From the NCBI GenBank assembly GCA_043805595.1, contig JAZDHV010000003.1:1-60841 (forward strand): DNA of 60,841 nucleotides, read 5' to 3'. Numbering within the stretch: position 1 is the stretch's first letter; every line of letters starts with the position of its first letter. The DNA is from Candidatus Woesearchaeota archaeon (GTDB taxonomy: Archaea; Nanobdellota; Nanobdellia; Woesearchaeales; JAGVYU01). Under the pieces are notes generated by a model. It ran no database searches and was not told the origin of the DNA. It worked only from the letters and a program-made list of their open reading frames with translations. Shown here in pieces: positions 1,712 to 31,920 of this stretch. Position numbers and translations under genes: made by a program.

Positions 1712-4015
1712 ATGTTTAGAAAAGGGCAGATTACAGTTTTTGTGATAATTGGGATAGTCATCCTTGTCTTTGTCGGAGTAGTTTTTCTGTATCAGACACT
1801 TAAGGATGAAAGTTCCTGGGACCTGCCCACTGACCAGATTGAGATTGTCAGTGAGGATCAGCGCAATGTCATTGACAGTGTTGATTCATGCCTGATGATA
1901 CTTGCATTGGATGGCCTTGAGATAATGAGGGTTCAGGCAGGCTATATCAGCATCCCAAATATTGAGGCTGTTGATGTGAGGGATGACTTCAGGAATGCTG
2001 TTGTCATCGATTCTGGGATAAAGCATGTTGAATATTCTGGTTCTTCAAGGAATTCACAGCCTTATTGGATTACAAAGGATGATCTGTTTGTACCGTCCAT
2101 TCAAAAGATGGAGTATGAGCTTTCTTCTTATATCAGCTCAAATATCATGGCTTGCCTTGGCAATCTTGATTCTTTTAGAGAGCAGGGTATTGAGCTGAAT
2201 GTTGATCATCTTAGGGTTGATGTGAATTTTGATCAGGGTGTGTTGGTTGACATGGAGATGCCTATCCACGGCAGCTCTGATGGAATTGATTTCAGCATGG
2301 ACACTTTCCGTTATTTTGTTCCTGTCAATATGAAAAAAATTTCTGAGTTATCAACAAGCATTGCTTTTGGAGAGCAGAGAGAGGCATTTCTTGAGTATTT
2401 TGCAATGGATCTTCTGTCTAAATACAGTTATTTAGGCGGGTCAAAAGGGCCTGATGACATCCCTCCTTTAAGGTTCACTGACGTGAATCTTGATTGTGAC
2501 ATGCAGTCATGGACTATTGATGAGGTTGAATCCACTTTAAAAAGGAATTTTTTCTTCAATCATCAGTATGTCCAGCTCGCTAATGTTGATCATGAGATCC
2601 CTTCAGGCCCATTGTCTTCTGTCTATGACACATATGTTTATACTCCTTTTCCAGGCAATTTTGATGATGTTGATGTTGATTTCTTTTTTGATCCTGATCT
2701 TGCTTTTGATCTGTCAATAAGTCCTGGAGGTTCTGTGCTTAAGCCTGAGAAGACTATGACTACGAGCATACCTCTTTTGCCAATGTTCTGCACTTACAAG
2801 TATCGTTTCAAGTATGACATGGAATATCCTGTAATTGTCAGGGTCACCGATAAGAGTTCTGCAAGGATTGATGCAGAGCATAACATCATCGATGAGGATG
2901 GTGGATTCACATTCTCTTTTCCTGTCTGGGTCCATATCTGCGGAAATCAGAAAAGGCTCTGCAATTACAAGGATTACAGCTATGACAGGAGCGTGTTCTC
3001 TGATATCCTTTCAGACAGCTCAAGCATAAACATTGATAATGTCCTGAATTCTGCTTCCACTTCATTCTGTGACATTCCTCAGGGTGAGGACCTGACAATA
3101 TTTGTTCATGATTCATTGTCTAATTATCCTGTCAAGAATGTGCAGGTAGGCTATTATGGCGGGAATTTTGACAATGACTGCCTTCTTGGCTCGACTGATG
3201 AGGAAGGAAAGCTCGTCACAAGATTTCCTTATTGTTCTGGTTGCATAATTTATCTGACAAGATACAATTATTCAGAAAGATTTGAGAGATTTGATGTTAT
3301 TGATGGCATGGATGATAGGAAGAGGTTTGTTTTAGAGCCCCAGCTTGAGTACAATGTCATTGTTAAGCTTGTGTATCTCCCTGTATTTATGTCATTCTGG
3401 ACTTTGCATAATATCAATGCAGGTCCGTCAAGGACTGCTCAGGACATTGGTCTTGACAATACTGCTGTTTCTGAAGCAGTTGGAAGGAGCATCACTGGAT
3501 TGAGAGAGACAGACCTGATGCAGCTTGTCCCATTGAATCTTGGGGTGTCATCATTGACAGATGATATTGCAGTCATTATCAGCGGTGACGGCCCCACTTC
3601 ATTTTCATACATCTCAAGTGTGGCTGAGCCAGGCGCAAACAAGATAATGCTGTCTCCTGGCGAGTATTCTTTCACTTACAGTGTGTTTGGCCAGGTTGTT
3701 GTTGATCCTTCAGAAGTTGATGATGGCCAGGGAGGGAAAGTTACTGTCTCGATGAATCCTCCATTCAGCATTGGGACTTATAATGGTGATTGGGCTCTTG
3801 GATCATATTCTGGAACATTTGAAATAAAAAGAGAGGATATGTTCGGCAAGTCAGCTGTTGTCTTGTATGTTCCAGTGAATTATCTGCCTGATGACATCCA
3901 TGAGGTCTTGGATCTGCAAAAGACAATAATCAGGCCTGACAGGAGTCTGGAGAGGAATGATAAGGTCATTTCAAGGCAGGATTTCATGCCTTATATTTAT
4001 CCTGTGTTTGAATAG
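1712..4015 (+). CDS. Cassette protein A1: large pilin-like protein with class III signal peptide
   Basis: MFRKG/QITVFVIIGIVIL prepilin-type N-terminus; paralogous to 10623-12698 and 22396-24348; GTGGGG RBS before ATG 1712. Confidence 0.8.
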   Translation: MFRKGQITVFVIIGIVILVFVGVVFLYQTLKDESSWDLPTDQIEIVSEDQRNVIDSVDSCLMILALDGLEIMRVQAGYISIPNIEAVDVRDDFRNAVVIDSGIKHVEYSGSSRNSQPYWITKDDLFVPSIQKMEYELSSYISSNIMACLGNLDSFREQGIELNVDHLRVDVNFDQGVLVDMEMPIHGSSDGIDFSMDTFRYFVPVNMKKISELSTSIAFGEQREAFLEYFAMDLLSKYSYLGGSKGPDDIPPLRFTDVNLDCDMQSWTIDEVESTLKRNFFFNHQYVQLANVDHEIPSGPLSSVYDTYVYTPFPGNFDDVDVDFFFDPDLAFDLSISPGGSVLKPEKTMTTSIPLLPMFCTYKYRFKYDMEYPVIVRVTDKSSARIDAEHNIIDEDGGFTFSFPVWVHICGNQKRLCNYKDYSYDRSVFSDILSDSSSINIDNVLNSASTSFCDIPQGEDLTIFVHDSLSNYPVKNVQVGYYGGNFDNDCLLGSTDEEGKLVTRFPYCSGCIIYLTRYNYSERFERFDVIDGMDDRKRFVLEPQLEYNVIVKLVYLPVFMSFWTLHNINAGPSRTAQDIGLDNTAVSEAVGRSITGLRETDLMQLVPLNLGVSSLTDDIAVIISGDGPTSFSYISSVAEPGANKIMLSPGEYSFTYSVFGQVVVDPSEVDDGQGGKVTVSMNPPFSIGTYNGDWALGSYSGTFEIKREDMFGKSAVVLYVPVNYLPDDIHEVLDLQKTIIRPDRSLERNDKVISRQDFMPYIYPVFE

Positions 4016-4074
4016 TATTATGGAATCATAATAAAAGATTTAAAATGAAAATCATAAAAGATATATGATTTAAA

Positions 4075-4231
4075 ATGTCAGAATTTTCCATCCAGTCTCT
4101 GACTGGTGGCAAGCTTTGCCTGCTTTTAACTTCAAAAGCTGGAAAATTCTGAGCACTAAGAACCACCAGTCCTATCATAATGTAGTGTGGATTTAGTGAA
4201 TCCCACCAGTCTATGACTGGTGGTTCTTTAG
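4075..4231. repeat. R1 mosaic repeat, copy 2 (short, two modules)
   Basis: Matches modules of 1-400. Confidence 0.9.
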
Positions 4232-4278
4232 ATATGGGAATGAAATAAGAAATGGAGATTAAGTAAATCAATAAAATT

Positions 4279-5628
4279 GTGAAAATGGCGAGAAAGAATA
4301 TGAAGCTGATGGCTTTGGTAATGATCCTTTTAGTCCTTAGCCTTCCTCTTATAAGTGCTGGCTCCCTTTCTTCTTATAATAATTATGAGGTCAAGGAAAA
4401 GAGTGAGAGACAGCCATTGTTTACTCCATATAATCAGACAGAGCTTGCAGAATTGCAGCAGTTATACAACCAGACTCCTCCTCAGAACACTCCTTCAGAG
4501 CAGTGTGAGGACAAGTCAAAGAAGGCAGATGAAAAGCTGAAGTTCATGGACAATGATGTGATAAGGGTTATTGAAGGCATCCTTGCTGTCTTGAGGGCGA
4601 TCTGCTCAACTATGGGAGCGATTGACTCACTTATCTCGACACTAGGCCTTTTGATCGGGATGCAGGGTGATGACTCTTGCTGCAAATGGGGATGGATTGA
4701 CTTGTCTGTCCAATGTGAAATCATGTGGGATTTCTTTTCTGGTTGGGAGGATATCTATACAGGCGGCTTCAAGAATGTTTGCTGCTGGCTTACATGCGGC
4801 TGGTGTACAAGGACATGTTATGGCATTGATAATCTTCTTAGCGGTGATTATTGGAGCTCTTCTCAGGCAGAGGTCGCTGAGGGAGGAAAGGCTTATAGTT
4901 ACAATTTAGAGGGAAATTTTGGTGAAACTCTAGGCGATGGCTTAGGTGCATTGTCCCCTTATGATAATATTTATACAGCAATTGCCTGCCTCTGCCCACA
5001 GGCAGTCTTGACAAACCTGAAGAAGCTGAAATCAATCTATCAAGTTTATGATTGTTGTGTTGATCAAGCATGCAAGAATGGCCAGTCTACTGAGAGCTGT
5101 GAAGCTATGCTTGATGAATCAACTTGCATGTATTGGGAAGGGGCATTGTTCTCATCTATTGCCAAGATAATATTTAGGATAATATTCTCAGCTGTGTGGA
5201 AAGCTGTTGCAGAGACATTGTCGCAGATGTGGTGGACAAAATGCTTGCTTGCTGCATTTGAACTGATCCAGACTCCTAAAATGCTTGAGGGCATTCTTGA
5301 GCAGTGGAAGCAGGCTTTTAAATCATTTGAAGAGCCTACTTGCTCTGATCTTGGATTTGACTCAATTGGAGATGATTTCTCTGAAGTCAATGATAATCTG
5401 CGAAATCAAGTGCCAAGAGAATATGAGGATTTTGACATGGACGGTTATTATGATGATGTTCAGGGTGCTCAGCAGACCCCACCAAGCTTATACACTGCCC
5501 AGGACAAGGCTTTTGCACAGTCTTTAGGGATTGACACAAGCAATCCTAGATGGCCTCAGGCTTATGAGCAGACTTTGTATGAATTGCAGCAGTCCCAGCA
5601 GGCCCCTCCTGCTGATGTGCAGACATAA
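4279..5628 (+). CDS. Cassette protein B1: secreted Cys-rich protein, essentially only the shared B domain
   Basis: Sec signal peptide; PYDNIYTAIACLCPQAVL...YDCC...SCE...TCMYWEG motif shared with B2 and B3. Confidence 0.75.
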   Translation: MKMARKNMKLMALVMILLVLSLPLISAGSLSSYNNYEVKEKSERQPLFTPYNQTELAELQQLYNQTPPQNTPSEQCEDKSKKADEKLKFMDNDVIRVIEGILAVLRAICSTMGAIDSLISTLGLLIGMQGDDSCCKWGWIDLSVQCEIMWDFFSGWEDIYTGGFKNVCCWLTCGWCTRTCYGIDNLLSGDYWSSSQAEVAEGGKAYSYNLEGNFGETLGDGLGALSPYDNIYTAIACLCPQAVLTNLKKLKSIYQVYDCCVDQACKNGQSTESCEAMLDESTCMYWEGALFSSIAKIIFRIIFSAVWKAVAETLSQMWWTKCLLAAFELIQTPKMLEGILEQWKQAFKSFEEPTCSDLGFDSIGDDFSEVNDNLRNQVPREYEDFDMDGYYDDVQGAQQTPPSLYTAQDKAFAQSLGIDTSNPRWPQAYEQTLYELQQSQQAPPADVQT

Positions 5629-5983: not shown

Positions 5984-7765
5984 ATGAAAAAACCAGACAT
6001 TAAATCAGTACCTTTTATCCTTAACAGCGCTCTACTAGTTTTCATTTTCGCAGTCATATTCTTTGTAATTCTTGAGATGAATGTTGACTCAGGATCCAAC
6101 AATATTTTTGGTCTTGCTGTTGGAGGGGATGAGGCTACTCCTAGTGGAGGTATAGCAGCTCCTGATCCTGCACCTATAACAGTTGAGCGTCTTGCTCCTT
6201 TGCCTAGAGCTGAATCTTCAACTAATACACCTTCCCCTGCTCCTAGCTCATCAGCTGGTGCACCGCCAAGTGCAACCTCAACTGCTCCTCCATTAGTCCC
6301 AGCTTATAATCCTGCTACTAACCCATTTCCTGAATCAACTGTTAATGCTCAAATGGAAAGATTTGAAAATGCTATGACTGGATTTGACTTAAGCCATGCA
6401 GATTGGCAGAATGCTGATAACAATGTTCAGAATGCTATGACAGGATTGGAGAGCGCACAGCAAACTTATCATACGGCAAATTTAAGAATATTACAACGAT
6501 ATGAAGAATCAGGAAAAACATTAAGTCATGCTGATGGAATCATTAACTTGAATGATCCAAATTTGGATCCAACTGACCGTGAATTATTGAGTGATAACAG
6601 AGACATGTTAACTGGTGCCCAAGATCGATTAGACAGTGCAAGAGATCAACGTAGCCAATTGGCTGTATCACTTATGGATGCTAAGAATAATAGGGATACT
6701 GAATATCAGACATTGCAGATGATTACTGGAGGTGAATATGACCCAGTCCAATTATATACTAGGCTTAATGCTGAATATCAGGCTGCAGTAGCTGCAGGTG
6801 CATCTCCAGAAGAATTGGCTCAAATAGATTATATGAGAAATGTTGCACAGTCAAGGGCAAATGCAGTTTCTCCTGAGACTGTTTCAAGGATTCAGGCAGA
6901 TAATCTTGTTACAGATATAGGGAATAGAATTGATAGCCTTAATGCCCAAATAACTGCTTTAGAGGCAAGCGGAGATAAAGGATCTGAATACCAAAACCTT
7001 GTTGCTCAAAGAAACCAATTATTGGCTGAACATGATAAATCTGTTGGTGAACTGACAAAAGCTCAAAGAGAAGAAGAGAAAGCAATTAAAAGAAAACAAA
7101 GAGAACAGCAACCACTGGATAGGGAAATGTACATAATGAAAGAAAAGACTTTCAACTTGCTTTCTGGCATCCTTGAGGAATATGTGATTTCCCCTTGGAT
7201 TGAGGATTATTGCAAGTCAGAATATGAGGCTTCAAACACCCCTGACAGGAATCCTATTGACATATCTGGTGTCCAGCCAAATCTTGGCGGTAGATCAGTA
7301 CTCACGCCTGGATTGACAGCTCCGACAGGTGTGACAACCCCTGCAAAAGCAGATAATCCTATTGTGCTTCCTGATACTGGCCTGGATGTCTGTTATGGCA
7401 GCACTGACTCGATTGCAAATGCGCAGGTCATTGGAGTGCCTGGTGATTTCCTTATCACTTACACTATCACAAACTGCGCGTCAGACAGGCTTGATTATTC
7501 TGTCCATATCACGAGCAGCGGACATGATGCTTCGTTGAGGCAGGGTTCTTTGTATCCAGGGGCAACAGTTTCAGATGAGGTTTCATCAACTGTTCAAAAT
7601 ATTGAGAATGTCTGTCTTAACACTGATGATCCTACAATCGGCACAAATGGGATATTTTGCATTCCAGTCACAATTACTGCTCCACCTCCAATCACAACTA
7701 CAATTCCAGCCACTCCCTCAACCTCGACCACAATCTTGACTGCTACAACCCTGCCTGCTTCATGA
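5984..7765 (+). CDS. Cassette protein C1: N-terminal TM anchor, Pro/Ser linker, coiled-coil middle, conserved C-terminal beta domain
   Basis: TM followed by IFGLAVGG; C-terminal FLITYTITN...NVCLNTD...FCIPV resembles the C2 C-terminus. Confidence 0.75.
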   Translation: MKKPDIKSVPFILNSALLVFIFAVIFFVILEMNVDSGSNNIFGLAVGGDEATPSGGIAAPDPAPITVERLAPLPRAESSTNTPSPAPSSSAGAPPSATSTAPPLVPAYNPATNPFPESTVNAQMERFENAMTGFDLSHADWQNADNNVQNAMTGLESAQQTYHTANLRILQRYEESGKTLSHADGIINLNDPNLDPTDRELLSDNRDMLTGAQDRLDSARDQRSQLAVSLMDAKNNRDTEYQTLQMITGGEYDPVQLYTRLNAEYQAAVAAGASPEELAQIDYMRNVAQSRANAVSPETVSRIQADNLVTDIGNRIDSLNAQITALEASGDKGSEYQNLVAQRNQLLAEHDKSVGELTKAQREEEKAIKRKQREQQPLDREMYIMKEKTFNLLSGILEEYVISPWIEDYCKSEYEASNTPDRNPIDISGVQPNLGGRSVLTPGLTAPTGVTTPAKADNPIVLPDTGLDVCYGSTDSIANAQVIGVPGDFLITYTITNCASDRLDYSVHITSSGHDASLRQGSLYPGATVSDEVSSTVQNIENVCLNTDDPTIGTNGIFCIPVTITAPPPITTTIPATPSTSTTILTATTLPAS

Positions 7766-8526
7766 TTAAGAAGATGAAACAAATAAAAATTTTGAAAGAA
7801 TCATTGAACAGTATCGATTCAAAAGCTCTTCTAGCTGCAGGTTTTGACTTAGTCCTTGTCCTGTTTCTATTTATCAGCCTAAGTATGTGGATAGGCTCAT
7901 TGTCTTCGCAGATAATGTCTGTGACAAACCTTCCTCTTGACCAGTTGTATAATGCAGAACTTTCTGAGTTAGAGTCGATGTATAGTGTTGTTTACAATTT
8001 CTTGTTTTCATTGATCATTGGATTGCTCTTGACATTTGTTATATTCATCTTATTGTATACTATTTTCAAAGGCCTGACTTGGTCATGGATTTATGCAAAG
8101 AAATTTTCTCTGAAAAAATTCTTCAATCTATTCCTAATAATTCTTGTCTGGTTCACCTTAATACTGTTCCTCATCATTAGTCTTTTCTTCAGATTTCAGG
8201 TATTTATCAATGCAAATGTCAATCTTTCAAGAATATTGATGATTGCATTAATTTTTTTTGTCATGTATTTCACAAACCTGTTATTCTTCTATTTTCTCAA
8301 AGATCAATCATTGAGATTTATCTTGAAGAACACTTTTTTCTTTTCATTCAGAAAAATGCATAATATCCTTCCTTATTTCCTGATATTTTATATCATCTTG
8401 TTGATATTGATTTTCTCTTTGTTCTTAAACACTTACTGGTTTTTTATTGGTTCAATGATTACCTTGATTTATCTTGCAGTATCAAGGATATTCTTCAGCA
8501 GATTGTTAGAAAAAAACTTTAGCTAG
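7762..8526 (+). CDS. Cassette protein D1: polytopic membrane protein
   Basis: About 6-7 hydrophobic helices; LYTIFKGLTWS matches D2 LYTLFKGLIWS; ATGA overlap with the C1 stop. Confidence 0.8.
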   Translation: MIKKMKQIKILKESLNSIDSKALLAAGFDLVLVLFLFISLSMWIGSLSSQIMSVTNLPLDQLYNAELSELESMYSVVYNFLFSLIIGLLLTFVIFILLYTIFKGLTWSWIYAKKFSLKKFFNLFLIILVWFTLILFLIISLFFRFQVFINANVNLSRILMIALIFFVMYFTNLLFFYFLKDQSLRFILKNTFFFSFRKMHNILPYFLIFYIILLILIFSLFLNTYWFFIGSMITLIYLAVSRIFFSRLLEKNFS

Positions 8527-9706
8527 ATCTTGTCCTTGCCATCCTCAATCCTTCACAAGCCCTTTTCTCATATATGTTTGTCAGCTTGTCGCAAAGATCA
8601 TATTGCTCATGCTCTAGTATGAATCCCATATAGCATTGGTCCCTGATTGAGTCCTTCACAATCTCTTCGCAGATATTGCTTGACACTGTCATTGTGGCTG
8701 CAAATAGGAAACAGCTGTCTTTCTTGTTTGGATCGCTTATCTGCTCGCAGCTTCTTCTGCTTCCTGTGACCTGCACCAGATTTAGGAAGCATTTGTCTTT
8801 GATGTCTGTCTGTTGTTTCAAGCATTCTTTTGCTGCCTTGTCTGGATCAGTCAGTGATATCTCTTTTATCTCATCAAGTATCTCCCATGATGGCCTGTCA
8901 TCCCCTCCTCCTGTTGGAGGTCGATCAATCTGTGTTGTTGTTGATGTTGTTGTTGTGGTCTCGCTTGCGCATGGAGAGCATGATCCACCGCAATCTATAT
9001 CTTCTTCATCCTGGTTTTTCACTCTGTCGAAGCATGTCTCGCATTCCTGGCAAATTCCTCCGCAATCTATCCCTTGTTCATCCTGGTTTTTCACTCCGTC
9101 AAAGCATGTCTCTTCTGCACCCTCTTCAATAACATTTATTGATAATGATGCCTTTGCCTCCTCTTTCTTGTATTTTGCAGTGGCTTTCACAAAATATGCT
9201 CCAAGCGGGGCAGTTGCAGGGATGTCAAATTCCTCAACACTGCTTTTGCTTGTCTCAACTGCGACTGTCTTTTCATATGAGTCAATTATCTGATCTGTCT
9301 CCCTGTGCACTAGCTGGAACTCCATCATTATGTCATATCTTCTTGTAGATCCAGTGTTTGTTATCTCATACTGGAAGCTGAATTTCTCTCCTGGCAAAAG
9401 GGATTTTTCGCTTCTTGATTTTAATGATAGGTCAAGAAGCTCTCCTGGCTCAGGCCCTCCTCTGAATATGAAAAAAGCTGAGACTGTCATGAGTACTGCA
9501 AGGACAACTACCACTATTATTGCTGGCTTAGAAAGATGTATCTCATGTCTTGTCGGTGGATTGTATACATATTCAATTGCATCCTGGATATCCTTGTCAC
9601 TGTATCCTGACTGCATGAGATGAGCCTTGATTGTGTATATGTCATATCTTTTTTCAAGATTCTGTTTTATGAATGCCACTAATACTTTGTTCACCATCTT
9701 TTTCAA
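8519..9706 (-). CDS. Membrane-anchored surface protein: Ig-like domain, two TCFDxVKNQDExxIDCGG repeats, Thr linker, Cys-pair helical repeats
   Basis: Repeat motifs visible in the translation; single TM near residues 60-80. Confidence 0.8.
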   Translation of the reverse strand: MKKMVNKVLVAFIKQNLEKRYDIYTIKAHLMQSGYSDKDIQDAIEYVYNPPTRHEIHLSKPAIIVVVVLAVLMTVSAFFIFRGGPEPGELLDLSLKSRSEKSLLPGEKFSFQYEITNTGSTRRYDIMMEFQLVHRETDQIIDSYEKTVAVETSKSSVEEFDIPATAPLGAYFVKATAKYKKEEAKASLSINVIEEGAEETCFDGVKNQDEQGIDCGGICQECETCFDRVKNQDEEDIDCGGSCSPCASETTTTTSTTTQIDRPPTGGGDDRPSWEILDEIKEISLTDPDKAAKECLKQQTDIKDKCFLNLVQVTGSRRSCEQISDPNKKDSCFLFAATMTVSSNICEEIVKDSIRDQCYMGFILEHEQYDLCDKLTNIYEKRACEGLRMARTRSS

Positions 9707-17346: not shown

Positions 17347-17788
17347 TCTCACCTGGTGCTTGAAGCAGAAAAGAGGGGTTAGGCTGATAGAGCCGTCTGA
17401 GATTAAATGCAATGATTATATTGGAAGGTCTGAAAATGACCTTGTCTCATTGAAAGGGGACTCCACTTACTGGAAGCTGATAAAGGCTTATTATGCCTGC
17501 TATGATGCATTATATGCCTTGTTAATGAAGGCAGGGATTAAGTCAGAGATCCATGACTGCTCTATAGAGCTGATGGGATTATTTGGGTTTGATGAAGAGA
17601 GCATTGATTTCATCAAGAAACTTAAGGATGACAGGATACAGAACCAGTATTATCTCAAGAATATTCCATTGAAGGATGAGGAGAAGGTCAAGGAGTTTGT
17701 CATTGAAGTCAAGAAAAAGATTTCCTCTTTAAGTGAGGAAGGGATTGATGAGGTAAGGGATAAAATCAAGCCAAAAGAGGATAAATAA
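17339..17788 (+). CDS. HEPN domain protein (partner of the MNT)
   Basis: AYYACYDALYALL...SEIHDC...DRIQNQYY HEPN pattern; overlaps the MNT stop. Confidence 0.8.
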   Translation: MVSLTWCLKQKRGVRLIEPSEIKCNDYIGRSENDLVSLKGDSTYWKLIKAYYACYDALYALLMKAGIKSEIHDCSIELMGLFGFDEESIDFIKKLKDDRIQNQYYLKNIPLKDEEKVKEFVIEVKKKISSLSEEGIDEVRDKIKPKEDK

Positions 17789-20800: not shown

Positions 20801-21466
20801 TCTGATGCAACCAGATCTTTGACTCAATTCAGGGGTTTGGCTGGATTCTCATCTTTATTCATCCCTGATGAGACATTGCAGGAATGGAGAGAGAAGGTTG
20901 ACCAGGCTTTTGCAAAAATGTATCTTGGAACAGAATATTGGGCTTCAAAGATTTGCGCCTCAAATATTGTCTTGGATGATGAATCATTGGTCTATATCGA
21001 GACTCCTGATGGTTTGATAGGAATCGCTGCTCACATTGAGGGAGAGAAGATTGAGTCCCCTGATCTTGCGAATAATTCTATGAGATATGTGTATAAGATT
21101 TCTTATTTTGTGCAGAACCATCCTAGCGCTGTTCAATCTGAAGGTTTCAGGTTGAATGACCAGGACATGGTTTTCAATGTTGAAGTGATTGGTCCAGGAG
21201 TTAGAAATAAAATATATCCAGAGGATATTGAGCTTGGGACTGGCCAGATAAAGCGTGTGGGTCCGGATAATTTGCTGGTTAAAGAGTCTCCATACAATTA
21301 TGACAAGGTTTGCATTGTGTTTGAGACTCCTATAAGGACTTTTGGTGAGAGTTTTTCCACAGAGTCAAGGGATGAGGTCTGCAATAAGTTCTCTAAATAT
21401 ACAGGTGGTCCAACAACAGTTAGAACCCCTTCACAAGTGTCTGGAACTGGCACAAGTGATTGGTAA
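17858..21466 (+). CDS. Cassette protein C2: 1202-aa membrane-anchored protein with internal lytic transglycosylase (SLT/lysozyme-like) domain
   Basis: AVAQVESS, GAVGLFQVQPSTA and AVARYYSG motifs (~19250-19810); TM + ITGMAVGG; C-terminus similar to C1. Confidence 0.8.
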   Translation: MKNKKQRNGNGILKRLTFHKDIFYPIAKVRQIPTALVEIKNKMKIKYKKKAKADDYHHMKAALLFIIMITSIFYLGVMSGSSSGPGSNSVTGGVVRITGMAVGGLDVSSWDDQELFFDATRKLTIIGKTTDGNTINGYLVEHIGETDPRLNGNYWITENPGWQTLGGDLVAIKWDGNTGQFRRFDLVNENSGPFDDDVNTLQDFIQDYSSAHGLERVEDDKLRTNYVFLGDDPSNPNTIIIPPWVLGEDSFNYRGPRVAASAGTGTTYGIGILNEQTLQPYLTSAMAKSLIHDNKNEEQWRDELDNRVTHDQAVEALALIGSSQSTIDELNKVKAGATNVQKANIDAAIASIQAKMDLIRASDAPMSQPLLGTTVGQPSGLQPNQVYRYTHSSGENIYRIDSIDDGQGNVIVVNENGAKVKINRDSFNSIMDEGSLTYIRTETPQSTPSPTTVAYSTGSNNLGVRTIVDVLNNNQGKYDLILNNPNVAIAVAQVESSLNVNTPDSVTGAVGLFQVQPSTAVDVLGRTDPAIRAINERYPDPGPETPAQRKVREDKIRAALLDLSTPINLNDPKTSTELGLVVLDEQIKFARTNNPDLTDDQILQIAVARYYSGTGPDGRIKTWQDYLTATGDQETGPSIVAHVNKFIKALKEIEPNLIQVSGTTPTGIFPIVTLEPIVKLEPSPEYLQQNGQPLYVDKDGNLYASPVADPKNLFSAGDALHVTIRGGYALLQPVPIVEGKPGAPLDEYYISPAGSIKDPTARLQIMQQEFNLLTGLPEGAEFEVKHENNGDLVIKAGPDTIRYVNHKGTQFDGDSVFKGTVRRTNDITAPIYYDENGNRITASKFEANNGLPDDEKKLFIQVPQRSTITTEHHGNDLVYGEHRFQNVEIKEGKIIDVWTEISRVNEEGREIFFVQPDKLDRTPQGYWLKFDCGIYAGCEFVGVVNPDNPDVTISPSEAKISPQDLAKYQKLGKQYSHRRFFSDATRSLTQFRGLAGFSSLFIPDETLQEWREKVDQAFAKMYLGTEYWASKICASNIVLDDESLVYIETPDGLIGIAAHIEGEKIESPDLANNSMRYVYKISYFVQNHPSAVQSEGFRLNDQDMVFNVEVIGPGVRNKIYPEDIELGTGQIKRVGPDNLLVKESPYNYDKVCIVFETPIRTFGESFSTESRDEVCNKFSKYTGGPTTVRTPSQVSGTGTSDW

Positions 21467-22344
21467 TATTTGATCTTGATAAAATGCCGAACATAATTCA
21501 GTGGATTTTAGGAATATCTATAATTTTGGTAGTGTCGCTCATCTATAATCATAAGTATGTCCTTGGCCAATTAAAAAAAGCATTAGTGGCATTAAGAAGG
21601 CCAAACAAGATCTTGATCACAGCCTTCATCGATCTTTTTTTTTATGTCTCTTTTTTCTTCATTGCACTTATTTTTTTATTGCTTGTCCAGAATAAAGCAG
21701 GTTCATTAGATGATATCGGCCTTGACTCGATCAAGAGCCAGCTTATGAGCGGTGAAATAACTGATGCTTTAGAGTCTCAGATGGCAGGTTCTGTTGAAGC
21801 AATGAGATCATTTGTTATTTACTTCATAATCATCTTTGCCATTGCAATAATAATCACTTTAGTCCTTTACACATTGTTCAAAGGCCTGATATGGTCAAAT
21901 ATCTCTAATAGCAAGTTCACAAAATCCTTTTTCTTAAGATATTTGCGGCTTAACTTTGTCCTGATGATTATTTTATTAATAATCTTGGCTTTTTTCTCAT
22001 TTTTCCTTGGCGACCTGGCATTGGATGTATCGCCTTACATCATGCTTGTATCTGCCTATTTCACATATTTATGCACATTTTTCTTCCTTAAAGGCCAAAA
22101 GACTTTCAAGAGCATAAAGAATTCAATTGTTTTTGGGATCAAGCTGTTCCCAAAATTGATTCTTCCATTGACATTTATTATTATAATCTATCTGGTTATC
22201 TTTGCAGTATTATATTATCTCTCTTATCTTAATATGCCTTTGCTGTCAAGCTTTGTTTACACAGTATTGATACTTGGATTGTTTGCCTTCATCAGGATAT
22301 TTTTATTTGGTATTTATAAGGAGATTATAAAAGAAAAAACTTAA
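21460..22344 (+). CDS. Cassette protein D2: polytopic membrane protein
   Basis: Paralog of D1 and D3; TTG start overlaps the C2 stop (alternative ATG at 21484). Confidence 0.8.
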   Translation: MVIFDLDKMPNIIQWILGISIILVVSLIYNHKYVLGQLKKALVALRRPNKILITAFIDLFFYVSFFFIALIFLLLVQNKAGSLDDIGLDSIKSQLMSGEITDALESQMAGSVEAMRSFVIYFIIIFAIAIIITLVLYTLFKGLIWSNISNSKFTKSFFLRYLRLNFVLMIILLIILAFFSFFLGDLALDVSPYIMLVSAYFTYLCTFFFLKGQKTFKSIKNSIVFGIKLFPKLILPLTFIIIIYLVIFAVLYYLSYLNMPLLSSFVYTVLILGLFAFIRIFLFGIYKEIIKEKT

Positions 22345-24400: not shown

Positions 24401-24401
24401 A

Positions 24402-24701: not shown

Positions 24702-24819
24702 AAAAAAATTGAGGAGGAATTCAAGGCTAAAGTAATGCCGAATTGTCATAAAAATCAAAGAGATTTTTAGGACACAAAAAATCCTAAAGGATTTTTTCGT
24801 GAATTCGTTTCAGATGATT
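24702..24819. repeat. R6 repeat, copy 2, running into the B3 start codon
   Basis: Matches 16514-16631. Confidence 0.8.
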
Positions 24820-27800
24820 AAAAACAAACTATCTGTGATTATTGCAACTTTACTACTTCTAACCCTCCCATTTAGTTATGCAGATTCTGTTTCAGAACAA
24901 TCATTAACTACAAGCATCAAGGAGTCAAATGAATTTGTATTAGGCCTATTCGGAAAAGTTACACCTATATCTGACTCATTAATACTATATCCATTAACTA
25001 CAAGCTCAAGATCTGAATTCATTCCATTGCTTGCGGCTACAACAACTACCACCAGTTCAACAACATCTACTTCCACGACAACAACTTCAACTACGTCGAC
25101 AACAACAACCACATCCACAACAATTCCAAGCGCTGCTGCACCCACATTCAGTGTTGATATTCCTGAAAGGATTGATAAGACCAGCATTAATATTATAGTG
25201 ACTTCTGATCCCTTGACAATAATTGAGGTCAATGTCAACAGCAGGGCTGATTATAGGAGGTCAAATGCTGATGATAATGGGACTGCCAGATTCAATAATC
25301 TGCAGTTAAGATCAGGCCAGAACAATATTGATGTCTCTTCAATAAGCGCAACTGGCGAGAACAATGCACAATCATTCCCGATCTTTGTTGACCTAGATCT
25401 GCCAGTATTGACAATCTCTGAAATGCCAGGCCTTGTAGGGGCGAGACAGTATGCATTAAGAGGTTCTGTCAACAAGCTTGTTGACATAGAAGTTTATGAG
25501 ATATCTGGTGATCTTGACAATACTCCTCCAAAAACCCCTGCTGGATTAAAGGTTAATGCAACCTCAGGAAATTCTGTTGCATTGTCATGGGACCAGAACA
25601 ATGAGTCTGACTTCTTGCAGTATATAATTTACAGGAGTGACAAAGGCCCTATTGCAACTACATCTCCTGAATCATATGATTCTTATGATGATGTCTTGGT
25701 AGATAAGAGCACAAGGTATCAGTATCAGGTCTCTGCTATGGACGAGTCATGTCTTGAGAGTCCAAAATCAAGGATTGCTGCTGTTACAACCCCTAATAAT
25801 GGTGAGGATGGCAGGGCTGTGCTCTTAGAGCCTATCACTGTTGATTGCAATGAAAACCAGAACCTGAGGAGGGTTGACTCATTCACGACAAATGGATCAT
25901 TCAATATAACACTTAATCTAGAAGAAGGCAGAAATTTGTTCTTGTTCAGGGCAACTGATCTCAGCAATAACACTGTTGAAGTCAGAAGAGCAACCCTGGT
26001 TGATTCAGAGCCTCCGACAATTGAGATCACCAGCCCAAGGCCTGGGATTATGATATATGAGCACTTTGCAAATTCTGTTGACATCCAGGGGATGACAGAG
26101 CCTTATTCAAAAGTTGAGCTTGCACTGCAGGGCCAGAGGGTTGCTTCAACTCCTAGTGCTAGAAATCCTGAAGAAGCTCTGCTTCCTGAATTGCAGGTTA
26201 CAATCGGCACTGTCAAAGAATCCACTAATGCAGATAAAGACGGATATTTTGAGTTTGAGAATGTAAATCTTATGACTTATATTCGAGGCTCGTTAAATGC
26301 TAATGTTGTTAGACCTGGTGATGAGGGTCTTGCTGGCAGGACCCGTGATCTTGGTGCATATGATGAAGTCAATCTTGCTTTCAGGGCAACTGACCGTGCT
26401 GGAAAACAGGCTGTTGAAGAGGTGTCTTACACTATTGGGACCTGCTGGTCTGGTAATTTCACTTGGGGCATTGCGCAATTGTCGCAATACAACAGCCCAT
26501 CATGGTTGAGTGCTGAGCGTCTTTCAGAAGGAACTGAAGAGATAGCCTTTTATTTCAAGTTCTCATATCATGGCGAGGGTGATATTGATGTGAATAATTC
26601 GAGGGACACTAGGTCATCGACAAGAGTCAATACAGTCTCAATCCATGATGCATGTGATGATTATATCAGGACAAAGCCAGATTATGACTGGGCCTGCAAG
26701 GCATTGAGCAGCTGCAGGGCTGAGATGAATCCTGATGGCAGCATGGCTTATGTAACATGCCGTCTTAACAAGGTTGATGAATTGATGGACTTTGATGCTG
26801 AAGAATGGAAAGATTGGTTCAAGGCAATCAACAATGAGATGAGATTCCCTTTGATGATCACATTAGGTTTTCAGGAAAGATTTCAGGGAAAGATGAGATC
26901 AGGCTCTCAAGCCTCATGTGAAGAAGTCACTTATGCTGTTGACAATGCAATGATAAATTTCACTGATGTCTTGCCTGACTGGCTTCTTTACGACGGTGTC
27001 AGGATAATGCAGGATGCAATCAAGACTATTGAGACAATCAACAAGAACCTAAATCAGATCCTTGAATATGTGACAATCGGCTGTGTTGCTTCTTTTATCA
27101 CAAAATTTGGGATTCAGGTTTACAGAAGATACTCCTGCACATATGATAATCTTTTTGGAAATATTGTTGACAGTATTGCTCCTGATCCAGAATCTTCTGG
27201 AAAACAGGAGAATTGCAAAGCCTGCCTGCAGCAGTTCAAGGCTGAGGGTTATTTCAAAGATGATGAGATCATCAGCAAGATCACTAATCCTATTGCAAAA
27301 TTGATGGATCCAGGCATTCAGGACAAGATCCCTGATGCTTGCATGCCTGTCTGTTTTGAGAAGTGCTCTAATGCATGGGATCTTGAGGCAAATAATTATG
27401 ATGTATACAGATGGGCTTGCGACCGTGTCTTTTGCCATGCTGCTCCTTCCAGATGGACTCAGGAAAAACAGGATTATGAGCTGGTTGAAAAGGCAAAAGA
27501 GCTCAATTACTGCCAGAATGATTTGACATATAGGGGCCAGCCTTTGACAGCTGTTGAATGCTCGAAGATTTCGACTTCTGAAGAGTTTAAGAGGACATTG
27601 ACAGAAGACACTTGCTTTGAGATACAGGACAAGACAGGAAAAAAGACTGAGATTTATGAGTTGAAAGAGCCTGCCGGAAATGATGTCTACAGGATTTTTA
27701 TTCCAGAAGCCAGTGGAAGGATCCTTAAGTCTGATTATGCCATAAAGGTTTCTGACCGTTATTATATGACTGCAATGCCTGAGACCTGCAATGAGATCTG

Positions 27801-30800
27801 CGGAATCACTGGAGCTGAGGATGATGAGCTCTATAATGATTATCTTGCTGAGACAACAAACAAGAATTCAACTGCTAGGTGTGTTACTGTCAATCAATGC
27901 AACCAATACAGGCAGGAAGGCAATCTTACTTTAAGAGGCGGAACTCAGCTTCAGGTAAAGAGTGCTATGAATCAAGGATTTACCAGTGACTGCTTTTACA
28001 AGGCAGGACATTCATCATTGAGCAACATTGATGTTGTCAGCAAGGATCCTAACAGGAGAAAGGAATGCTGCTGCATCAACACTGCTGAGAGGGCTCAGCT
28101 GAATTATTATAATTATACACAGCCTTATATCCAGAAGGATAATAAAAAATCATTGCTCAGCCTTGCAACAGCTGAAGCTGAAGAGGCTGTCGGATCTCCT
28201 GAAGGTGATTTCATCAATCCAAGGCCAAGCAATTATTCTGATATGTTGTGGTCTTACAGGTATTGGAAGATAGGGTTTGACAATAAGGAATACAATCCTG
28301 ACAGGTACATCAAGGGTAGGGATCAGTCTGCATGCTTTGGCCAGAACAATTGGATCTTTGACGGGTTTTCAAAGGCTGAAGGAGGCAATCTTCTCACTGT
28401 TGATCCATTCAAGCAGCATACTGCTGCATTCCAATGTGCTTGCATCACTGGCATCTATAACAGGCTTAAGATGATCCAGAATATTCTGGTTCTCCTTTCA
28501 TCATGCTTGATTGAAGTCAGAGAGACTGGAAAAGGGGATGCAGGAGTCTGCAAAGAGGTTTTCACGCAATATGTTTGCGGAATGCTCTGGGATATAATAT
28601 CATACATAAAAGATGGATGTGTCCCTTTCCTGGGCAATATTGATTATGACAAGCAGGAGAATGAAATCCTTGAAAAGGTTAAGGTCGGCACTACATCAAT
28701 ATTTGAGTCTATGGATGATTCTACAAATGAGATTTCGCAGGAGTATGGCAATGCCCAGATCAATAGCTTGCTCGGCGGCGGCCAGGGCCAGATTGCTCGT
28801 GCTATCTGCCTTGCCTCATTTGGTTTTGACTGGGAGCTCTCTCTTGAGACAATGCTTGATGCTGCTTACTCCACACCATTTGCCACCTTGGTCCAGCCTA
28901 TCACAAAGAACAGGGAATATCTTTCTTTTGACCCAAGGACTGGAATGCCAAAATATGAGTACACTGCTTCTTGGATAATAAATCCTGGTTGTGAATTTGA
29001 TTATTATGATGTCTCATTGGTATGCGTCTCTGATGATGAGATTCGTGCAAATCCTGATATTAATTGCGGTAAAGTAGGCGGTTCTGAGATGGGATTGTCT
29101 GGCTGTGACTGTGCAAGGGTCACTGGCAAAGATGGTCCAGAGATGCAGTTCTTCAGGGGAAGGACCCTCTCCAATAATGTGCTTGTCGATCAAGAGTATG
29201 ACAGGATTGTCAAGCAGAAGTATAGGTTTGATCATCTTAAGTTCACTCTTGCTCCTAGCAGAAAACAGCAGCAATACTCGCCTGACACTGTTGCAAACTG
29301 CTTTCCTGAAGGCCATGAGGATGGAGTTTTTTATTTCCCATTGAGGGACAGGTCTGCGAATGATCTTATTGACTGCAATGTTGACATTGACTCTGGCATA
29401 TTTTATTGTGAAGGCGGAGGCCTTATGTCTGAATGGGATAGGAATGGCAATGCTTATTTCATCAATGTTGAGCTTAATGGCCAGGACATTGACCATCCTG
29501 ATCTTTATATCAATGAGGGCCAGGCATTAAGCCTTCAGGCTGAAATATTCAATTCAGGAAGGCCTAAATGCTTGAAGGTTGAGGTCTCACCTTTTGGCAG
29601 CCCTGCTGTTGTCCAGTCAAGGGATATTGATTTTAATGGTTCTCAGATTGTTCCAGTTAGGCTTGTTCCTAGTGAAGATGTGTCTAACAGGTATAGGCAG
29701 TATGATGATGTCAGGTTTGATGGCTGTTACACTACTGGAGGTTCAAACAGCAGGACTGAGTGCTATAATATTATTGGAAAGCCAAGGATTGACCAGAGCA
29801 ATGGCAATCTTGGCAAGTTCAAGACTATTCCAGATGGCTTTTCTGTAGTCTATTATTTGACTTTTATTGATGAAGATAGTAGTGGAAGCATTGAATTGAC
29901 TCAAAACAGCAAGGATAAGGTGTACATAAGGACAACTGACAACAGCAATGATAATCGTTACATAGATGTTGACAAGTCAACTGTGATGATTGCAAATCTT
30001 TTTGAGGATGGAAAGGTTAAGATTTCAAACCATCCAGAGGCTGTTTTTGAGATCACCAATGAAGTTCCTTTCAACAAAGGCATTGCAAATATCACTTATA
30101 TTGCCACAACTGGAAGGACAGATTATAACACTAATACAGAGAGGTGGAGCCTGACATATGGCTTGTATTATCTTGAGGATGATGGTGATAATTGCGCTGA
30201 TATCATTGAGACTGATCCTGTCGTTAATTATAATGAGAGGCTTGAGTATTCTGTTAATTTTTATGTAAAACCTTTGGATGAAGAGACTGCTAGGACTGGC
30301 AATAAGAAATGCACTCTTAATGCAAAATCCTCTGGAATATGCGATTGTGATGGTGATGGCTCTAACCAGGATGATGCTCCAATTGACTGCACAGGTGAGC
30401 CTGAGAATTATGGTGCAAGAAATGTAAGGGGAGAATGGAGCTATTGCTATAAGGATGGAGGAGCCTCAACACCTACATGCCATCTTTTCCCTAAATGCCC
30501 TAACGGTAGGACTACAACTCTTCCTTGCGACTGCAATCAGGACGGTGAGATTGTTTTTAACAATGACAATGATAGGAATACAGAACTTACAAATGATGTT
30601 GATTGTTATGATAAGTTTAATTATTGCTATGATTCTAGTGGCACCAGACAGTGCATCCCTTTCAACACCTGTTCAAGAAAACCAGAGGGAGAGCCTGCTG
30701 ATATGATTCCTTGTGACTGCAACAGGGATGGTGTGATAGAATTCACAGGAGACAATGATTGTTTTGGCAGTTTAAGATATTGCAGATCATCTGATTCATC

Positions 30801-30843
30801 TGATCCAGCGTCTGAGTATAAATGCTATTCTGGTTCAGCATAA
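24814..30843 (+). CDS. Cassette protein B3: ~2000-aa secreted protein with Thr linker, Ig-like and FN3 domains, Cys-rich B domain and C-terminal CDC(N/D)xDG repeats
   Basis: FN3 pattern DNTPPKTPAGL...LSWDQNNESDFLQYIIYRS...YQVSAMD; DPFKQHTAAFQCACITGIYNRL...CL...VCKEVFTQYVCG motif. Confidence 0.85.
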   Translation: MIKNKLSVIIATLLLLTLPFSYADSVSEQSLTTSIKESNEFVLGLFGKVTPISDSLILYPLTTSSRSEFIPLLAATTTTTSSTTSTSTTTTSTTSTTTTTSTTIPSAAAPTFSVDIPERIDKTSINIIVTSDPLTIIEVNVNSRADYRRSNADDNGTARFNNLQLRSGQNNIDVSSISATGENNAQSFPIFVDLDLPVLTISEMPGLVGARQYALRGSVNKLVDIEVYEISGDLDNTPPKTPAGLKVNATSGNSVALSWDQNNESDFLQYIIYRSDKGPIATTSPESYDSYDDVLVDKSTRYQYQVSAMDESCLESPKSRIAAVTTPNNGEDGRAVLLEPITVDCNENQNLRRVDSFTTNGSFNITLNLEEGRNLFLFRATDLSNNTVEVRRATLVDSEPPTIEITSPRPGIMIYEHFANSVDIQGMTEPYSKVELALQGQRVASTPSARNPEEALLPELQVTIGTVKESTNADKDGYFEFENVNLMTYIRGSLNANVVRPGDEGLAGRTRDLGAYDEVNLAFRATDRAGKQAVEEVSYTIGTCWSGNFTWGIAQLSQYNSPSWLSAERLSEGTEEIAFYFKFSYHGEGDIDVNNSRDTRSSTRVNTVSIHDACDDYIRTKPDYDWACKALSSCRAEMNPDGSMAYVTCRLNKVDELMDFDAEEWKDWFKAINNEMRFPLMITLGFQERFQGKMRSGSQASCEEVTYAVDNAMINFTDVLPDWLLYDGVRIMQDAIKTIETINKNLNQILEYVTIGCVASFITKFGIQVYRRYSCTYDNLFGNIVDSIAPDPESSGKQENCKACLQQFKAEGYFKDDEIISKITNPIAKLMDPGIQDKIPDACMPVCFEKCSNAWDLEANNYDVYRWACDRVFCHAAPSRWTQEKQDYELVEKAKELNYCQNDLTYRGQPLTAVECSKISTSEEFKRTLTEDTCFEIQDKTGKKTEIYELKEPAGNDVYRIFIPEASGRILKSDYAIKVSDRYYMTAMPETCNEICGITGAEDDELYNDYLAETTNKNSTARCVTVNQCNQYRQEGNLTLRGGTQLQVKSAMNQGFTSDCFYKAGHSSLSNIDVVSKDPNRRKECCCINTAERAQLNYYNYTQPYIQKDNKKSLLSLATAEAEEAVGSPEGDFINPRPSNYSDMLWSYRYWKIGFDNKEYNPDRYIKGRDQSACFGQNNWIFDGFSKAEGGNLLTVDPFKQHTAAFQCACITGIYNRLKMIQNILVLLSSCLIEVRETGKGDAGVCKEVFTQYVCGMLWDIISYIKDGCVPFLGNIDYDKQENEILEKVKVGTTSIFESMDDSTNEISQEYGNAQINSLLGGGQGQIARAICLASFGFDWELSLETMLDAAYSTPFATLVQPITKNREYLSFDPRTGMPKYEYTASWIINPGCEFDYYDVSLVCVSDDEIRANPDINCGKVGGSEMGLSGCDCARVTGKDGPEMQFFRGRTLSNNVLVDQEYDRIVKQKYRFDHLKFTLAPSRKQQQYSPDTVANCFPEGHEDGVFYFPLRDRSANDLIDCNVDIDSGIFYCEGGGLMSEWDRNGNAYFINVELNGQDIDHPDLYINEGQALSLQAEIFNSGRPKCLKVEVSPFGSPAVVQSRDIDFNGSQIVPVRLVPSEDVSNRYRQYDDVRFDGCYTTGGSNSRTECYNIIGKPRIDQSNGNLGKFKTIPDGFSVVYYLTFIDEDSSGSIELTQNSKDKVYIRTTDNSNDNRYIDVDKSTVMIANLFEDGKVKISNHPEAVFEITNEVPFNKGIANITYIATTGRTDYNTNTERWSLTYGLYYLEDDGDNCADIIETDPVVNYNERLEYSVNFYVKPLDEETARTGNKKCTLNAKSSGICDCDGDGSNQDDAPIDCTGEPENYGARNVRGEWSYCYKDGGASTPTCHLFPKCPNGRTTTLPCDCNQDGEIVFNNDNDRNTELTNDVDCYDKFNYCYDSSGTRQCIPFNTCSRKPEGEPADMIPCDCNRDGVIEFTGDNDCFGSLRYCRSSDSSDPASEYKCYSGSA

Positions 30844-30847
30844 AATT

Positions 30848-31005
30848 TGTCAAAGTCGGCAGGGACCACCAGTCAATAGAATGGTAGCATGTTCGCTTCC
30901 CTCACCCTGCCGAATTTGAGCATGCTCAGAAATATGCCACCTTCCAAAAATTGATTGTGGATTATTTTCCACTGGTCATGCAGACCAGTGGTATATTTAT
31001 GACAT
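30848..31005 (-). repeat. Palindromic repeat family R4 (MITE-like), inverted relative to the copies at 46985 and 47791
   Basis: Reverse complement of 47791-47948 with few mismatches. Confidence 0.9.
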
Positions 31006-31083
31006 ATTAACATTTATGCAAATTAGTTAAATATAAAATAATGGGTGGAATTGGTTGAGTGGAATTGATGGAGTGGAGTAATA

Positions 31084-31920
31084 ATGAAAAACAACATAAT
31101 CTTTTCTTCAATTAGATCATCAGCAGGGTTATTGTTAAAGAATAAGTCAATGTTTGCATTGCTTTTCATCATCCAGTTTCTTTTTATCACATTTTTCATT
31201 GCAACCCAGACAATAATCCAGCCGAAGATTATCTCTTTGGGCATTGATATGATTGATTACATGGAGAATCTTGAGAATGAGCCTGTTGATCTTGGCAAGG
31301 ATTTCCAGGGCATCTTCGGAAAGGATCCTCTTTTGTTGTACAGGAACTCAAAAGAGATTGGCATATTATTGTTGCAGAATATCCTGATAACCTTGGCCTT
31401 GTTCCTCATCCTTGTCAATTCTGCATGGGTGCTTTCTTTGAAAATCATCAAGAGTGTCTCATGGAAAAAGTCTTTGAAGAACTTTTTTAATTTCATTAAA
31501 GTGTCATTCATCTTTTTATTGCCTTATTCCATCATTGTCTACTTTTATGTCAAGGATTCTATCCTAAAGTCTGTAGAAAAGGATCTTAATCTGCAATTGA
31601 CTACTCTATTCATCCTGATCTTGACTTTTCTTGTCTGGTATTTTATTATGATATCTTATTCCCTGGTTCATCTGCCACTTAAAGAAATGTTAAGGAAGAC
31701 ATTCTTGATTGGGATAAGGAAGGCTCACATAATCCTATTGACATATTTTATCTCTTTGGCTGCTATTATATTAGTCTTTTTTGTAATGTTCCTGACTTTA
31801 GAGATAAACTTCTTTTTGTTCATGGTTCTTGCAATTGTTTTTATCAAGGTCTATAACCTTTCTAGAATATTTATCATTGATGTTGTCAACAGTCTAGAGC
31901 AATCACTTAATAAATCTTAA
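31084..31920 (+). CDS. Cassette protein D3: polytopic membrane protein
   Basis: Same TM layout as D1/D2 (soluble loop after TM1, Trp after TM2, terminal SRIF); more diverged. Confidence 0.7.
   Translation: MKNNIIFSSIRSSAGLLLKNKSMFALLFIIQFLFITFFIATQTIIQPKIISLGIDMIDYMENLENEPVDLGKDFQGIFGKDPLLLYRNSKEIGILLLQNILITLALFLILVNSAWVLSLKIIKSVSWKKSLKNFFNFIKVSFIFLLPYSIIVYFYVKDSILKSVEKDLNLQLTTLFILILTFLVWYFIMISYSLVHLPLKEMLRKTFLIGIRKAHIILLTYFISLAAIILVFFVMFLTLEINFFLFMVLAIVFIKVYNLSRIFIIDVVNSLEQSLNKS

Follow-up and report, generated by a model that had tools for sequence, protein, structure and literature searches.

A widely conserved two-module operon for a putative cell-surface assembly in Woesearchaeota

Introduction

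What does a cassette of about 30 kb, made up of eleven large genes for hypothetical proteins, do in an archaeal genome of 1.64 Mb? The question is raised by a stretch of 60,841 nucleotides (nt) from a Candidatus Woesearchaeota archaeon (assembly GCA_043805595.1, contig JAZDHV010000003.1, positions 1 to 60,841 of the forward strand). This whole stretch, called the window here, is contig C3 of a 66-contig genome estimated to be 92% complete. A reading made from the letters and open reading frames (ORFs) alone, called the sequence-only reading below, had placed the eleven genes in four families, A to D, occurring three times in the order A-B-C-D, A-B-C-D, and A-B-D. It had proposed that each set is an interchangeable pilus-tip or contact complex with its own cargo. 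The ORF check found all eleven genes at the positions given to them, on the + strand (Table 1).

No Woesearchaeota culture is known to us, nor any account of the way in which these small and very abundant archaea stay attached to partners. The answer offered here, which we regard as about evenly balanced between right and wrong, is that the cassette is an operon for a multi-subunit cell-envelope complex of two ancient paralogous modules that would make contact with the surface of a partner or host and breach it locally. The broader view that it encodes a membrane-anchored, largely extracellular multi-protein surface assembly is well supported.

Distribution and gene order

Family A was found in all 41 relatives compared, the source genome included, and these span 38 families of the order. 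In a wider sample, 143 of 151 genomes of the phylum carry it at E ≤ 1e-10. Counted by rows, it is present in 113 of 116 genomes of the same order and, for the rest of the class, in 29 of 34. All 8 sampled genomes that lack a match are 95–100% complete.

Gene order was counted in related loci. ORFs of 100 loci formed the sample, on which a profile of the Cys-rich B domain (Bc) was built iteratively, and 97 loci entered the counts after three duplicates and the window itself had been dropped. All 97 were gathered through their A matches, and many are truncated by contig ends. B directly follows A for 82 of the 113 A genes having a downstream neighbor, D directly follows C in 28 of 39 cases, and D is followed by A in 36 of 71. 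After B comes C (24 of 87) or D (21 of 87). The uninterrupted run A-B-C-D-A-B is present in 12 loci, or in 13 when small inserts are tolerated. This gene order is far beyond chance. The counts bear out the earlier claim of a fixed order that is old and under selection, and they place A-B-C-D synteny in other Candidatus Woesearchaeota genomes. The genes abut or overlap in other genomes too, and a gene for methionyl-tRNA synthetase adjoins the cluster in three loci (three genomes).

A mobile element or virus was considered as the origin of the cluster and rejected, since the cluster is class-wide, syntenic, and found beside the methionyl-tRNA synthetase gene, and since its modules have no DNA-level repeats in common except intergenic ones. 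Many database records with a cluster of the Woesearchaeota type (L040, L043, L045, L047, and others) are titled “uncultured Methanosarcinales archaeon,” which is probably a wrong taxon label.

Two ancient module types

The three sets of genes are not three versions of one thing. In a FastTree phylogeny of 115 A proteins there are two clades, each with a support of 99. The first holds all 20 A genes that precede B and C, together with A1 and A2; the second holds all 32 A genes in the “second position,” together with A3. In the tree of 77 D proteins, a clade with a support of 94 comprises all 21 D genes that come after a long B, D3 included, and D1 and D2 are placed among the 54 other rows, none of them of this second type. 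The trees point to two old modules that have been retained together, a type I module (A-B-C-D, here A2-B2-C2-D2) and a type II module (A'-B'-D', here A3-B3-D3). Since the two ancient types are kept jointly and in a fixed arrangement throughout this taxonomic order and outside it, the A2-D2 and A3-D3 sets are differentiated partners. The notion of a tandem triplication into interchangeable modules found no support, as types kept side by side in this way are not alternatives to each other, and the cassette did not arise by a recent triplication.

The remaining set, A1 to D1, is a lineage-specific extra, a divergent module derived from type I and seen only in the same genus. A1 sits on a long branch inside the type I clade with its ortholog from the same-genus comparison genome (G001, locus L019) and with locus L039, and the same-genus genome is the only other one in which C1 turned up. 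In G001, four extra genes lie between D2 and A3 (L019, 12543–17947), and one of them, on the opposite strand, codes for a 425-amino-acid (aa) protein with the N-terminal domain of A; in the window, the gap between D2 and A3 is 51 nt.

The protein families

The claim of four paralogous families stood for A, B, and D, by BLASTP or profiles, and did not stand for C. By BLASTP, every pair among A1, A2, and A3 is significant, with E values of 1e-19 to 4e-27 and about 500 aa aligned. B1 and B2 match in the C-terminal Cys-rich stretch (E 1.7e-8), B2 and B3 match at the N-terminus (E 1.2e-4), and the Bc profile finds all three, so that a common Cys-rich domain in signal-bearing B proteins was rightly seen. 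D1 matches D2 at 2e-6 and D3 at 7e-5; the D2–D3 pair is not significant by BLASTP, and the D profile matches all three at ≤ 6e-39. For C1 and C2, the best BLASTP E value is 7.7, which is not significant, and C1 is also missed by the Cc profile, which represents the C-terminal domain of the C2 type. An hhalign comparison of C1 with Cc gives a probability of 8% (E 0.004) for a collinear alignment, which pairs Cys residues of C1 with three invariant or nearly invariant Cys of the C family (C2 positions 1033, 1152, and 1175). On this evidence three families are proven, and C1 is a positional analogue whose homology to C2 is no more than hinted at by a sub-threshold alignment. Within the source genome, Bc and Cc matches are confined to genes of the window, the D profile has one weak extra match (contig C50, 4.7e-06), and five other proteins share only the first ~220 aa of A.

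Each A protein has, by hydropathy, a single N-terminal hydrophobic helix (hydrophobic stretch 4–35). Across 63 A sequences, position 8 is always Gln, Gly7 is nearly invariant (at least 90%), and Phe12, Ile14, and Gly16 are also conserved in at least 90%. A mere anchor would not be expected to keep Gly7-Gln8 so strictly, and the pattern agrees with cleavage of the prepilin type; Gln at position +1 is the rule for some archaeal pilins. The class III-like signal peptide proposed for A is in this way seen across the family, and A is probably trimmed after the Gly by the prepilin peptidase of the genome. The Pfam model for class III signals (PF04021) has no match in the source genome, a null that is uninformative because, among 14 control genomes, the model passes its cut-off in just one.

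The AF2 model of A2 (mean predicted local distance difference test [pLDDT] 89.8) has a transmembrane (TM) helix at residues 5–36, alpha/beta domains at 50–430, a transthyretin-like sandwich at about 440–530, and a second sandwich reaching to about 660. The transthyretin-like domain gives the best structural match (VIA Z 11.8, root-mean-square deviation [rmsd] 1.9, 81 aa). The C-terminal half of A resembles domains of Gram-positive pilins and adhesins (VIA Z 7.5–9.7, Foldseek E down to 4e-6). Other searches told little: Pfam gave nothing meaningful for the 63 A sequences, a sequence search of PDB with the A profile gave chance-level rows, the ESM Atlas gave only unnamed clusters with scores < 0.9 for the N-terminal part of A2, and a viral fold library gave just tail-fiber-like sandwiches (TM-score ≤ 0.17).

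The B proteins begin with a signal-like stretch (hydropathy) and range from 449 to 3069 aa. Among 32 members scanned with Pfam, the domains found were Glucodextran_B in 12, Pur_ac_phosph_N in 7, Big_13 in 4, fn3 in 3, and Big_3_3 in 3. B2 consists of immunoglobulin (Ig)-like repeats, for which the Big_3_3 match is weak, and a C-terminal Cys-rich helical bundle. Over the C-terminal ~400 aa of B, 7 Cys are invariant in 41 sequences. The AF2 model of B2 residues 700–1111 is all-alpha with long helices (pLDDT 71.5); its best VIA matches (flagellin, Z 8.6; YaxB, 7.3; MakA, 7.2) are all under the chance level for helical bundles, and the ESM Atlas had no usable match. B3 and its counterpart in genome G040 are 34% identical over ~1600 aa. 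The long type II B was also considered as a hidden B+C fusion, and the tail of B3-type proteins against the Cc profile gave a probability of 6% (E 0.006), which does not bear the idea out.

The C proteins are the most plastic in their middle. Each has one anchor by hydropathy (about residues 58–82 in C2), and protein lengths run from 258 to 1679 aa, the middle differing greatly in extent. When C1 is compared with its same-genus ortholog, the first ~50 aa and the last ~200 aa are ~90% identical, and the ~340-aa middle between these ends is unrelated and has been replaced; the conserved ends and variable middle that had been read from the window are confirmed by this pair. In C2, the variable middle carries a lytic transglycosylase domain (SLT, PF01464) and is followed by the conserved C-terminal domain at 980–1192. 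The SLT match scores 26.1 bits against a cut-off of 21.3 bits and covers residues 484–522, which are model positions 13–50 of 117 only. A Glu-Ser pair and a Gly-Leu-Phe-Gln stretch can be seen at 493–513, which may correspond to the catalytic Glu-Ser motif and the downstream motifs of SLT enzymes. A phmmer search of PDB gave no match at E ≤ 0.01.

The D proteins are polytopic, with roughly six to eight hydrophobic stretches by a hydropathy script that over-counts overlapping windows; ~6–7 TM segments had first been suggested. In 61 D sequences there is no invariant column, Trp145 alone is at least 90% conserved, and there is no conserved polar or charged residue. The lack of any invariant residue, with one Trp only standing out, argues against an enzyme. 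The idea that D is a dedicated prepilin peptidase was rejected, as there is no conserved Asp pair and none of the 61 match Peptidase_A24. Pfam gave nothing meaningful for these sequences, and a PDB sequence search with the D profile gave chance-level rows only.

B and C may be physical partners. In four loci (four genomes), the Bc and Cc domains occur within one polypeptide. A complex prediction for B2 700–1111 with C2 940–1202 scored 0.51, the best of 3 controls scoring 0.00; of 80 solved complexes, 58 attain the mark for such scores, as do 2 of 110 mismatched pairs, and scores ≤ 0.60 belong to only 7 of the 80 solved complexes plus both mismatches. Contact agreement between runs was at least 69%, and the pLDDT of the partner was at least 66. 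The prediction lends weak support to an interaction of the two C-termini.

The B-C junction deserves a comment of its own. An MNT/HEPN pair had been read between B2 and C2. Its position and the NTP_transf_2 domain (39.3 bits, cut-off 21) were upheld, and the HEPN match stays below its cut-off, at 18.8 bits against 22. No such insert is present at the same position in L019. A different HEPN/MNT pair occupies the same junction in G040 (L029, 14623–15727), and small ORFs lie there in several other loci. This junction looks like a hot spot for insertions.

A contact apparatus or a wall

How these parts may work together can be pictured from the membrane outward. D and D', which hydropathy places in the membrane, would be polytopic platforms. 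A and A' would be held in the membrane by the N-terminal pilin-like helix, presumably cleaved after its Gly, and would project a stalk of alpha/beta and beta-sandwich domains, a fold predicted with high confidence. B and B' may be exported arms of Ig-like or Fn3-like repeats that end in, or contain, a disulfide-rich helical bundle. This bundle may dock on the conserved C-terminal domain of C, as the natural B+C fusions and the weak complex prediction suggest. Lineage-specific modules for binding or lysis would reside in the repeat arms of B and in the middle of C, which is exchangeable, and the one in C2 may be a lytic transglycosylase aimed at bacterial peptidoglycan. We think that a cell-contact apparatus with exchangeable binding or lytic parts is the likeliest function; such an apparatus would suit the adhesin-like repeats, the swappable middle of C, the sporadic murein hydrolase domains, and the large investment in small genomes.

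Of course, several observations weigh against contact as the function. Lytic domains are rare: SLT is present in 2 of 34 C proteins, C2 included, and a Glucosaminidase domain in 1 of the 32 B proteins, and therefore peptidoglycan attack cannot be the core function. Nor does SLT, being so rare, support the proposal that each module has its own cargo. Within the genus, the cluster proteins are 76–95% identical and the flanking genes 79–99%; the cluster is about as conserved as its flanks, and nothing outside C1 points to rapid change driven by hosts. In the A2 model, the TM helix is followed by a linker at 36–42 with pLDDT < 50 and then by a helix at 50–76, seemingly unlike a classical pilin. 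Foldseek found no match for the B2 C-terminus at E ≤ 0.001, and searches of family libraries and protein names found no annotated relatives of the A–D subunits. Lastly, the locus counts are not independent, because the loci were gathered through A matches and the genomes are related.

The main rival is a structural wall layer, in which A and B, with C and D as anchors, would form a surface-layer (S-layer) or wall lattice that serves the integrity of the cell and not contact. We consider it unlikely, though it accounts for much of what was seen. A lattice would suit a cluster that is nearly universal in the sampled genomes, lies beside housekeeping genes, shows ordinary conservation inside the genus, and codes for large secreted proteins of many beta-sandwiches with membrane-anchored partners. 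The SlaA/SlaB S-layer of Sulfolobales likewise joins a large exported protein to a membrane-anchored beta-sandwich stalk, and one beta-sandwich of A aligns to SlaB of Sulfolobus (Z 9.8, rmsd 2.1, 85 aa). That alignment, however, is one of many equal matches to a generic sandwich. There is no sequence relationship to SlaA or SlaB, the anchor here is N-terminal, and there are two paralogous modules with a polytopic D. A to D match no S-layer family of Pfam, and a weak S_layer_C match falls to another gene of this stretch (23.7 bits, slightly short of the 23.9-bit cut-off). The swappable middles of C, the sporadic lytic domains, and the wide length range of B fit adhesins better than a lattice.

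A less likely rival, and one we find improbable, makes A a giant minor or tip pilin, with B to D as accessories, on a type IV pilus built by ATPase and platform loci elsewhere in the genome. The check for such machinery that was proposed with the sequence-only reading did find it: one Peptidase_A24 (prepilin peptidase) gene on contig C18 (61.5 bits) and T2SSE + T2SSF pairs on contigs C16 and C35, with extra T2SSE matches on C47 and C22. Small canonical pilin-like ORFs are present as well. Like type IV pilins and other class III proteins, A has a short basic leader, Gly at –1, Gln at +1, and a hydrophobic helix, in a genome that encodes the peptidase. However, neither T2SSE nor T2SSF has a match on contig C3, and the Pfam scan, which covered 40 ORFs of the window, found no ATPase, platform, or small pilin gene among them. 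A is also far from an ordinary pilin, with 620–870 aa and four or more ectodomains, and it comes in every case with B and D, partners that lack counterparts in pilus systems. In the model of A, a flexible linker seems to stand in place of one continuous alpha-1 helix packed on a sheet. Two paralogs, on contigs C55 and C49, bear the Gly-Gln motif after an earlier signal peptide and TM segment, a placement that suits a membrane anchor. Class III signal peptides are not limited to pili in archaea, as the sugar-binding proteins of the Sulfolobus “bindosome” carry them too.

A transport or secretion device (conjugation-like, or for uptake of DNA or nutrients), with D as the channel, C as a VirB1-like wall-lytic helper, and A and B spanning the periplasm, would make use of the polytopic D, the SLT of C2, and the tight operon, but it is very unlikely given that no Pfam family of VirB4/VirD4-type or other ATPases turned up among the scanned window ORFs, that SLT is so rare in C, and that D keeps little beyond its one Trp.

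The reading as a contact apparatus has a more ambitious form, which we regard as possible but rather doubtful. The operon would be the host-contact organ of Woesearchaeota and Pacearchaeota, a heteromeric, two-module surface machine with no relatives outside the class, whose exchangeable C and B modules select the partner cell and in certain lineages cut the peptidoglycan of bacteria to open a bridge.

Relation to described systems

As far as sequences and predicted folds can tell, the operon resembles no described system, and no description of it was found in print. In this the earlier suggestion of an undescribed system agrees with the family libraries, the fold comparisons, and the literature. 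An NCBIfam scan of 10 proteins gave no matches, and the names of homologs are nearly all “hypothetical protein,” the sole exception being a transthyretin-family label on one B match. Literature on surface proteins, pilins, class III signals, lytic transglycosylases, and conserved clusters of Woesearchaeota and DPANN archaea does not describe the operon, supplementary family tables lying outside this search.

The closest themes in print concern the SLT domain. The consulted parts of PMC8204110 present the fam00969 proteins of Woesearchaeota and Pacearchaeota, which are large and carry an SLT domain, as enzymes that may bind cell walls, and those of PMC9723730 propose peptidoglycan attack by some Woesearchaeota. 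C2 is likewise a large, anchored, SLT-bearing Woesearchaeota protein, and the idea of wall binding or degradation is common to both. The difference is that those papers, in the parts consulted, treat the SLT protein alone, whereas in the conserved operon of seven genes a single subunit carries SLT, and carries it as an optional insert (2 of 34). The consulted parts of PMC11329633 and of the preprint 10.1101/2020.07.16.207365 hold nothing on the cluster.

Gram-positive adhesins and sortase pilins (SpaA, SpaC, SdrD, GBS52) share with A the tandem CnaB/transthyretin-like beta-sandwiches of its C-terminal half. The likeness goes no further than a generic sandwich, with whole-chain TM-scores ≤ 0.18, and the mode of anchoring, the N-terminal domains, and the partners all differ.

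Coordinates and other features of the window

Table 1. Genes of the cassette and their immediate neighbors in the window
Feature	Positions	Strand	Basis
A1, divergent additional A subunit of type I, 767 aa; pilin-like N-terminal anchor and large ectodomain	1712..4015	+	BLASTP to A2/A3 ~5e-27; A tree
B1, short B subunit, 449 aa, 19 Cys; signal-like N-terminus; Bc domain 226–373	4279..5628	+	Bc profile 2.4e-33
C1, 593-aa protein with an N-terminal anchor, in the C position	5984..7765	+	Position; low-complexity/coiled middle, conserved C-terminal ~200 aa
D1, polytopic membrane protein, type I D	7762..8526	+	D profile 5.7e-39; D tree; 4-nt overlap with C1 stop
X, Cys-rich single-pass membrane protein, recurrent cluster neighbor	8519..9706	-	Homologs beside cluster in other genomes
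A2, type I A subunit, 691 aa	10623..12698	+	AF2 model; type I clade of A tree
B2, type I B subunit, 1111 aa, 30 Cys; Bc domain 936–1075	12943..16278	+	Bc profile 5.7e-51; weak Big_3_3 match
MNT/HEPN-like gene pair between B2 and C2, outside the system	16678..17788	+	Pfam
C2, type I C subunit, 1202 aa	17858..21466	+	Cc profile 3.5e-76; Pfam SLT
D2, type I D subunit, polytopic	21460..22344	+	D profile 5e-53; D tree; 7-nt overlap with C2 stop
A3, type II A subunit, 650 aa	22396..24348	+	A-tree clade with all 32 “second-position” A rows
B3, long type II B subunit, 2009 aa, 66 Cys; Bc domain mid-protein, 1202–1307	24814..30843	+	Bc profile 1.4e-19
D3, type II D subunit, polytopic	31084..31920	+	D-tree clade with support 94

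Gene X carries two near-identical Cys-rich repeats, and its homologs adjoin the cluster in five genomes (G001, G012, G020, G040, and G010). X is an uncertain member of the system.

The intergenic spaces are rich in repeats. A modular short interspersed repeat of ~338 nt with a hairpin is found at 66–403, 9977–10312, 4071–4232, 24398–24562, 39742–40026, and 55261–55542; it has 140 blastn matches, which are spread over most of the genome's contigs and frequently lie at contig ends, and no Rfam match. Its copies occupy the unusually long intergenic gaps of the cassette. Small palindrome-bearing families lie at 1500–1601 and 12801–12902 (36 matches genome-wide), at 5662–5741, 12736–12790, 24347–24401, and 24596–24675, and at 16498–16635 and 24686–24823. 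They sit upstream of A1, B2, C1, and B3 and could be mobile elements, or else regulatory or terminator sequences that the genes share. Directly upstream of the A1 start, at 1609–1699, a 13-nt unit stands in five tandem copies.

Farther along, two syntenic genes at 33978–35689 (- strand) are 34–36% identical to their same-genus counterparts, the genes on either side being 97–99% identical, and the pair is hypervariable. A 744-aa secreted beta-propeller protein is encoded at 41329–43563 (- strand; Pfam Beta_propel, E 1.5e-160). A Tn5-type transposase fragment (43847–44251), an HNH endonuclease gene (49423–49860), and a second MNT/HEPN-like pair (57229–58316) are also present.

Significance

The operon takes up 14–30 kb in genomes of 0.6–2 Mb, yet it is kept in nearly every sampled genome, and the retention of so large an operon argues for a central role in the lifestyle of these archaea. 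The analysis yields four defined protein families, a predicted B–C interface, and a hypervariable segment in C. The C-terminal region of B has 1,639 relatives at E ≤ 0.001 and 1,454 at E ≤ 1e-10 among 1.84 billion cluster representatives, so that B alone accounts for more than 1,400 clusters (at 50% identity) labeled “hypothetical” almost throughout. If the host-contact reading is true, the operon would be the long-sought molecular basis of the association between DPANN archaea and bacteria.

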